Of a DNA stretch of 64,000 bases, positions 2,802-3,698 are shown piece by piece. A program made the translations under genes and the position numbers. Below the pieces are notes generated by a model. That model was not told the origin of the DNA and made no database searches. It saw only the letters and a list, made by a program, of their open reading frames with translations. Every line of letters starts with the position of its first letter. Within the stretch, counting starts at the first letter, position 1. This DNA is from Candidatus Aenigmatarchaeota archaeon (GTDB lineage: Archaea > Aenigmatarchaeota > Aenigmatarchaeia > PWEA01 > JACQIF01), in assembly GCA_016432325.1 (NCBI GenBank), contig CP066684.1, forward strand, positions 64,001 through 128,000, given 5' to 3'.

Positions 2802-3037
2802 TGAGCATCATACGCGCGAAGGAGATGAGGTCGATGGAAGAGCGGGAACTTCGCAAGCGCGTCGACGAGTTGAGACTCGAGCTTACGAAATCGCAGGCTC
2901 AGGTGGCCATAGGCGGCGCGCCGCCGAATCCGGGCAGGATAGGGGAGATAAAGAGAACAATCGCACGCGCGTTGACGATAAGGAGGGAGCGCGCATCAAA
3001 GTCACAATCGCAGAAACCCGCAAAACGAGGTGCATGA
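2801..3037 (+). CDS. rpl29: 50S ribosomal protein uL29
   Basis: MSIIRAKEMRSM...NPGRIGEIKRTIARALT; TAATG overlap with rps3. Confidence 0.95.
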   Translation: MSIIRAKEMRSMEERELRKRVDELRLELTKSQAQVAIGGAPPNPGRIGEIKRTIARALTIRRERASKSQSQKPAKRGA

Positions 3038-3091
3038 AACATGGTTTCATACCTCCTCGCTTCGAAAAAATCCAGAGGTGACAAGAAATAG
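3034..3091 (+). repeat. gene-start hairpin element before sui1
   Basis: ATGAAAC-ATG-GTTTCAT stem, anti-SD ACCTC, SD GAGGTG; uORF 3041-3091. Confidence 0.7.
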
Positions 3092-3414
3092 CAGAAGTAT
3101 GCCCCAACTGCGGGCTTCCAAAGGCTCTGTGCGTCTGCGAGACGATGGCCAAGGAGAGCGAGAAGATAAAAATCTCCGTGGAGAACAGGCGATTCGGCAA
3201 GGACGTTACGATAGTCGAAAACGTCCTTGAGGGCATGAATCCCCAGATGATAACGAAGACGCTAAAGCAGAAACTCGCGTGCGGCGGGACATACAAGAAC
3301 GGCCGCATAGAACTGCAGGGCGACCACCTGAGACGCGCCGAGGAAATCCTCGTCTCACTGGGGTTCGACAAGGCGCAGATAGAGAAAGGCGGCAGAAAAA
3401 GGATGGGCCGGTGA
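3088..3414 (+). CDS. sui1: translation initiation factor aIF1/SUI1 (apparent ATA start)
   Basis: AEVCPNCGLPKALCVCE zinc knuckle lies in frame upstream of the ATG at 3145; LKQKLACGGT, IELQGDH; SD GAGGTGA 6 nt before ATA; in-frame TGA at 3079. Confidence 0.9.
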   Translation: MAEVCPNCGLPKALCVCETMAKESEKIKISVENRRFGKDVTIVENVLEGMNPQMITKTLKQKLACGGTYKNGRIELQGDHLRRAEEILVSLGFDKAQIEKGGRKRMGR

Positions 3415-3698
3415 TGCGTACGATAACTCCGGGAAACGTCGTGAATCATGAGCTGATAGGGTTGAAGGTGAAGGTCGTGGAAGCGGATAATAAGGCACAG
3501 AAGGGAATCGAAGGCCGCGTCGTCGACGAGACGAAGGGCTCGCTCGTCGTGGAAACGCAAAGAGGAGAGAAGAAAGTGGATAAGAAAGGACGAACGTTCG
3601 CATTCACAATCCCAAGCGGGAAGCGCGTGCGCGTCGACGGAAACGTCATCGCGTATCGACCGGAAGACCGCATCAAGCGAAGATTGGAGAAGTGGTGA
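3414..3698 (+). CDS. rnp1: RNase P protein Rpp29/POP4
   Basis: NVVNHELIGLKVKV, GIEGRVVDET, RPEDRIK; canonical position after sui1. Confidence 0.94.
   Translation: MRTITPGNVVNHELIGLKVKVVEADNKAQKGIEGRVVDETKGSLVVETQRGEKKVDKKGRTFAFTIPSGKRVRVDGNVIAYRPEDRIKRRLEKW

Follow-up and report, generated by a model that had tools for sequence, protein, structure and literature searches.

The window, that is, the whole stretch of 64,000 nucleotides of DNA that was analysed, carries on its + strand an archaeal ribosomal-protein cluster with the gene order S3-L29-aIF1-Rpp29-S17-L14. The S3 gene (1866-2801) is followed by that of L29 (2801..3037; Pfam PF00831, E 6.1e-16), which has an ATG start and a TGA stop at 3035-3037 and lies directly 5' of the gene encoding aIF1 (SUI1). 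The aIF1 coding sequence (3088..3414) comprises 108 codons plus a TGA stop, and its product matches the Pfam SUI1 family (PF01253) with an E-value of 2.4e-18 and a score of 66.8 bits against a cut-off of 25.5. It is the only copy in the genome of this member of the Aenigmatarchaeota, a single contig of 874,869 bp (0.87 Mb). Next comes the gene of the RNase P subunit Rpp29 (3414..3698; Pfam PF01868, E 8.9e-25), whose ATG overlaps the aIF1 stop codon as TGATG at 3412-3416. The place of aIF1 between L29 and Rpp29 is kept, and the called genes of related contigs appear in the same order. The S3 protein of the cluster, with 311 aa, is long, and its C-terminal extension contains a C-x2-C...H-x4-H motif (CPVCSKDYDNERSLKIHIGQRH).

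The aIF1 frame reads TGA (3079) CAA GAA ATA (3088) GCA GAA GTA TGC (3100), then the zinc knuckle CPNCGLPKALCVC (3100..3138), E and T, and finally ATG (3145). Direct reading of the sequence bore out what a preliminary description had said of this region: not a single ATG, GTG or TTG codon is found between the in-frame TGA at 3079 and the knuckle, which has the motif CX2CGLPX3C-phi-C and lies 5' of the first in-frame ATG (3145..3147). The ATA codon (3088..3090), located at the position homologous to Met1 of the relatives, begins 6 nt after the end of a Shine-Dalgarno (SD) sequence, GAGGTGA (3075..3081), whose own TGA is the in-frame stop 5' of aIF1. This spacing, also pointed out before, was confirmed, and the SD is complementary over all of its 7 nt to the 3' end of the genome's own 16S rRNA (GGATCACCTCCT). 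The proposal that aIF1 starts at the non-canonical ATA is strongly supported by the comparative data given below, and translation very probably begins at this codon (AUA, 3088). A tRNA-Met(CAU) with an A1:U72 end was detected in the genome with ARAGORN; an odd initiator tRNA was sought with the same program, which revealed nothing unusual and reported no tRNA within the window. As an observation of a different nature, ARAGORN reported only 12 tRNA genes in the 0.87-Mb genome, most of those listed carrying introns; many tRNAs of this organism are probably multi-intron or split and for this reason were missed by the program.

The order to which this genome belongs was represented by 22 species genomes from six families and nine genera, and an aIF1 match was obtained in all of them. 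A survey of the start codons of relatives, which the preliminary description had proposed as a check, gave ATC in 17 species, ATA in four, ATT in one and ATG in none at the Met1-homologous position. An SD match of at least 5 nt was in register in 20 of the 22 species, with its GGTGA ending about 6 nt 5' of the ATH codon, and in 18 of the 22 no ATG, GTG or TTG occurs between the upstream in-frame stop and the first cysteine of the knuckle (Cys1). The remaining four carry a canonical codon directly before Cys1, at 15 nt from the SD (GTG in the sister species G001; ATG in G004, G015 and G017), which could be an alternative start. Within the genus, ATA is present in all four species, two of them represented by further metagenomic contigs (L296 and L297) with the same arrangement of SD, 6 nt and ATA. 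The lack of ATG in 22 related species is, however, only moderately improbable when their common descent is considered. At one locus (L008, from G011) three tandem copies of the aIF1 leader, the SD, the ATC and the first four codons lie around a run of N, owing either to an artefact of assembly or to a tandem duplication of the start region.

The reading of the codons downstream of the ATA bears on where the protein begins. The knuckle residues C, C, G, P, L, C and C, plus the following T and A, are invariant across the order, and the synonymous alternatives are all used at their codons (TGC/TGT, GGG/GGA/GGT, CCN, CTN, ACN and GCN). Residues that stay fixed while their codons vary synonymously indicate that the region is translated, and the knuckle is thus under purifying selection at the protein level; over the whole order, pairwise codon differences were 1774 synonymous versus 803 nonsynonymous. 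When this genome (G000) was compared with G001, nucleotide identity started some 6 nt 5' of the ATA; farther 5', the leader could not be aligned. The same CX2CGLPX3C-phi-C knuckle binds zinc in the aIF1 of Methanocaldococcus jannaschii (PMC6237735). All of this speaks against a protein that begins at the internal ATG at 3145 and leaves the knuckle untranslated, as automatic gene calling has it: the public aIF1 call of this genome is an 89-aa product (P0004) without the zinc knuckle. No SD precedes that ATG; among the 22 species, methionine occupies the position in this genome alone, with Ile or Leu in all the others, and in most of the species the nearest canonical codon downstream in the frame is 20-45 codons away, inside the fold. 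A start at 3145 was rejected on the basis of this lone methionine and of the selection on the knuckle, and we regard it as very improbable. An error of sequencing or assembly, or a gene in decay, would have nothing in its favour beyond the oddity of the codon itself, and it can hardly be true: the reading frame is intact, the gene is single-copy, and the same codon class (ATA, ATC or ATT) is kept in 22 independently assembled species genomes and in the two metagenomic contigs, which led us to reject a sequencing error.

Neither the other genes of the operon nor the other initiation factors checked share the weak start of aIF1. The aligned start of L29 is ATG in 30 of 30 loci of the class, and that of L14 in 27 of 27 of the same loci. 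Every member of the order has an ATG at the aligned start of S3, Rpp29 and S17 or beside it; Rpp29 was examined in 30 loci, of which 22 belong to the order, and each of them showed an ATG at or near that position. The L29 start was also canonical (ATG, GTG or TTG) in 27/27 loci of a second order of the class and in 30/30 loci of Hadarchaeia, a group in which most of the L14 matches were partial at the N-terminus. In this genome, the genes for aIF1A and aIF2-beta also begin with an ordinary ATG. Two genome-wide screens of G000 for ATH codons behind SD-like motifs gave no enrichment over ordinary sense codons; these screens were of low power, as there are few SD genes, and their crude ORF picker replaced aIF1 by a longer antisense ORF.

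Beyond the order, 133 of the 371 species of the class Aenigmatarchaeia were sampled. In the second order, the aIF1 start was read in 35 of 42 genomes and was mostly CTG or ATA. Ten of these genomes have an unambiguous CTG, several directly after an in-frame stop, and four, comprising one family (4/4), have ATA, again after GGAGGTGA plus 6 nt; twelve have an ambiguous CTG, with a GTG or TTG two to three codons upstream inside the SD, and nine have canonical starts. The remaining orders of the class were canonical in 72 of 76 cases, with three possible ATH starts in one family. Eighty loci were also sampled from across Archaea, with Woese-, Pace-, Nanohalo-, Micr-, Alti-, Iain- and Bathyarchaeota, Archaeoglobi, several methanogen orders, Methanomethylicia and Nitrososphaerota among the groups represented, and 59 of the 60 species outside Aenigmatarchaeota and Hadarchaeum had canonical starts, 56 of them ATG; two Hadarchaeum loci of this sample read TGA-GCA-CTG. 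Hadarchaeia (loci L234-L295, genomes G371-G435) start aIF1 with CTG in 34 of 62 species, with ATG in 23 and with GTG in four. In 27 of the 34 CTG species the stretch from the stop to Cys1 is free of canonical codons, the context being typically GGAGGTGCA-TGA-GAG-CTG, and Hadarchaeia are in this way a second phylum with a near-cognate aIF1 start. SD matches were longer in the genes with near-cognate starts (mean 6.9 versus 4.8 nt; Mann-Whitney p ~1e-10, with species that are not independent). A tree of aIF1, built from 97 columns and weakly resolved, grouped the order of this genome into one clade (SH-aLRT 91) and required at least six changes between near-cognate and canonical states. These comparisons point to weak starts (AUH or CUG) that recur in separate lineages. 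Some aIF1 genes of Aenigmatarchaeota (L128, L142, L143 and L067; family f28 and relatives) were also seen to carry an extra CxxC pair 5' of the usual knuckle, e.g., MAVCPKCGSQATANTCSKCGLP, that is, an N-terminal extension with a second half-knuckle.

Public annotation treats these starts unevenly. In NCBI records of relatives the protein is given, with no remark, an initial M at ATA (P0002), ATC (P0006 and P0007) or CTG (P0018), and gene callers truncate or misplace such aIF1 genes, as a result of which published counts of knuckle-bearing aIF1 and the rules of archaeal annotation may be biased. The names given to aIF1 in public records are also unreliable, since P0018 is called tRNA lysidine(34) synthetase TilS and many others bear the bacterial name 'stress response translation initiation inhibitor YciH'.

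The leader between L29 and aIF1 (3034..3087) contains a perfect 7-bp hairpin (ATGAAAC-ATG-GTTTCAT) followed by ACCTCC...GAGGT, and the L29 stop lies 50 nt before the ATA. Hairpins of the form ATGAAAY-loop-RTTTCAT are found at about nine loci of this genome, in many cases with a second stem and an SD behind them, immediately ahead of a start codon; the other copies are at genome positions 104222, 178689, 297995, 467596, 556226, 802651, 843550 and 862898. The element is inserted between L29 and aIF1 here and in L296 and is absent from G001 and L297. The leader folded no better than shuffled sequence (z = -1.26) and, given this value, the absence of the hairpin from G001 and its character of dispersed repeat, a hairpin sequestering the SD was rejected as a conserved regulator. 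Two mini-ORFs cross the leader. The first (3034..3081, 15 codons) overlaps the L29 stop as ATGA, shares the frame of aIF1 and terminates at the TGA within the SD. The second (3041..3091, 16 codons) is the uORF of the preliminary description, and its TAG overlaps the ATA as ATAG. Both this uORF and the overlap exist as described, but they are not conserved across the order, and in two of the four species of the genus it is L29 itself that makes the ATAG. Thus, in G001 and L297 the TAG of L29 overlaps the ATA, and in L296, where the element is present, a 9-codon ORF ends at ATAG and the SD is AGGTGG, so that the counterpart of the first mini-ORF continues from its upstream in-frame ATG into aIF1; the product called for L296 has 124 aa. 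All four species of the genus therefore have an ORF that terminates on the ATA, and in the families that start with ATC an ATAG overlap is impossible. From these comparisons, the overlap is an inherited L29-aIF1 coupling, a remnant at genus level, and not a dedicated uORF. The inserted hairpin repeat has pushed L29 away in this genome, with the mini-ORFs left as a bridge.

Limiting the synthesis of a start-fidelity factor through its own poor start is a textbook circuit of bacteria (the AUU of infC) and of eukaryotes (the context of eIF1). A 2014 review describes how IF3 controls its own synthesis through an AUU start and eIF1 through an AUG in a poor context, and it counts the part played by non-AUG starts in archaeal regulation among the open questions (PMC4705826). 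Ribosome profiling of Haloferax shows near-cognate initiation sites (PMC7261190). Our full-text literature search found no paper on a near-cognate aIF1 start, nor any case of a self-limiting start-fidelity factor in the archaeal literature searched; a study of aIF1 discusses the autoregulation of eIF1 and not the start of the aIF1 gene itself (PMC6237735). The bacterial infC gene offers a close parallel, as the factor that rejects non-canonical starts begins itself at an AUH codon (Butler et al., 1987, as related in PMC4705826), the codon stands after an SD in a polycistronic message and its class is conserved across a large clade. However, IF3 and aIF1 are unrelated proteins with different folds, aIF1 uses AUA and AUC besides AUU, with CUG in sister lineages, and the feature is confined to some archaeal lineages, most archaea sampled having AUG. 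Feedback has been demonstrated for infC, whereas for aIF1 we infer it. eIF1 (SUI1) has the homologous SUI1 fold, the same fidelity role and a suboptimal start of its own (Ivanov et al., 2010, in the accounts of PMC6237735 and PMC4705826). It keeps an AUG in a poor Kozak context within a scanning system, in contrast to the near-cognate codon behind a strong SD found here, and it lacks the archaeal N-terminal zinc knuckle. Canonical aIF1 proteins, such as those of M. jannaschii, Pyrococcus abyssi and Sulfolobus solfataricus (PMC6237735), belong to the same family and their genes have the same position in the ribosomal-protein cluster, and the M. jannaschii protein shares the knuckle motif. The difference lies in the start, canonical in nearly all the species sampled outside the two phyla and AUA in the present case.

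From these data, a working model can be outlined. The aIF1 gene would be translated from the polycistronic ribosomal-protein mRNA starting at the near-cognate AUA at 3088, which the initiator tRNA(CAU) would read with a mismatch at the third position, giving a 108-aa protein that begins with M-A-E-V-C-P-N-C. The strong SD, GAGGUGA, 6 nt upstream would position the 30S subunit on the weak AUA, and ribosomes finishing L29 or, in this genome, the bridging mini-ORFs, probably add to the supply. Owing to the TGATG overlap at the other end of the gene, synthesis of Rpp29 may be coupled to the weakly initiated aIF1 ORF. It is reported that, with the aIF1 of S. solfataricus, the complex of 30S, aIF1A, aIF2 and Met-tRNAi binds an AUG mRNA and not an AUU mRNA in vitro (Hasenoehrl, 2009, as presented in PMC4705826 and PMC6237735), and aIF1 destabilises complexes on non-AUG mRNA (PMC6237735). 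Because of this destabilisation, initiation at the gene's own AUA should respond inversely to the level of aIF1: when the factor is plentiful, less initiation would occur at its AUA, and when it is scarce, more, which would be a negative feedback. By analogy with the two known circuits, and in view of the restriction of the weak start to aIF1, its recurrence in separate lineages and the published rejection of AUU, we lean towards autoregulation of the infC/eIF1 type as the best reading of the aIF1 start, with somewhat more confidence than doubt.

Other explanations of the weak codon have to be weighed with this one. Even with no feedback, less aIF1 would be made from a weak start in a highly expressed operon, so that the AUA could simply set aIF1 below the ribosomal proteins with no sensing of its level. 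The location of the gene, packed tightly against L29 inside a highly expressed ribosomal-protein operon, agrees with such a static attenuation, and the pairing of a strong SD with a weak codon resembles fixed tuning. Nevertheless, Rpp29, presumably also needed in small amounts, keeps its ATG at or near the start in all loci examined, and aIF1 is the only gene on which weak starts recur, which they do in two phyla and by way of different codons (AUH and CUG); the rejection of AUU by aIF1, in the form in which it is published, also makes some dependence on the aIF1 level hard to avoid. We therefore consider a purely static effect rather unlikely, and it should be noted that attenuation and feedback are not mutually exclusive. 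Drift of a coupled restart codon was also taken into account. L29 terminates on the SD's own TGA, 6 nt 5' of the ATH, in seven species of the order, and in 13 of 22 its stop lies at most 11 nt from that codon, because of which reinitiation, and not de novo initiation scrutinised by aIF1, may dominate. If ribosomes restart after L29 or the mini-ORFs, the restart codon would matter little and could have drifted from AUG, and the ATAG overlap with a terminating ORF throughout the genus fits this explanation. On the other hand, the L29-aIF1 junction is just as tight (0 to -8 nt) in relatives whose aIF1 starts with ATG, the other overlapping gene pairs of the operon keep ATG, and several species of the order retain the ATH across L29-ATH gaps of 31-50 nt. 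Drift should moreover have yielded ATG in part of the species and ATG is found in none, for all of which we judge it improbable, and less credible than static attenuation.

Returning to the autoregulation of aIF1, its wider form is that several archaeal lineages, among them Aenigmatarchaeota (AUA/AUC/AUU and CUG) and Hadarchaeia (CUG), make this factor from a near-cognate codon that aIF1 itself polices, a convergence of the three domains of life on one circuit, and for this broader proposal we find the arguments evenly balanced. A near-cognate aIF1 start that is conserved, specific to the gene and repeatedly evolved makes the question directly testable with the existing archaeal in vitro systems. 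If the proposal is true, these archaea would have a homeostatic control of initiation stringency that evolved repeatedly and independently of bacterial infC and of eukaryotic eIF1.
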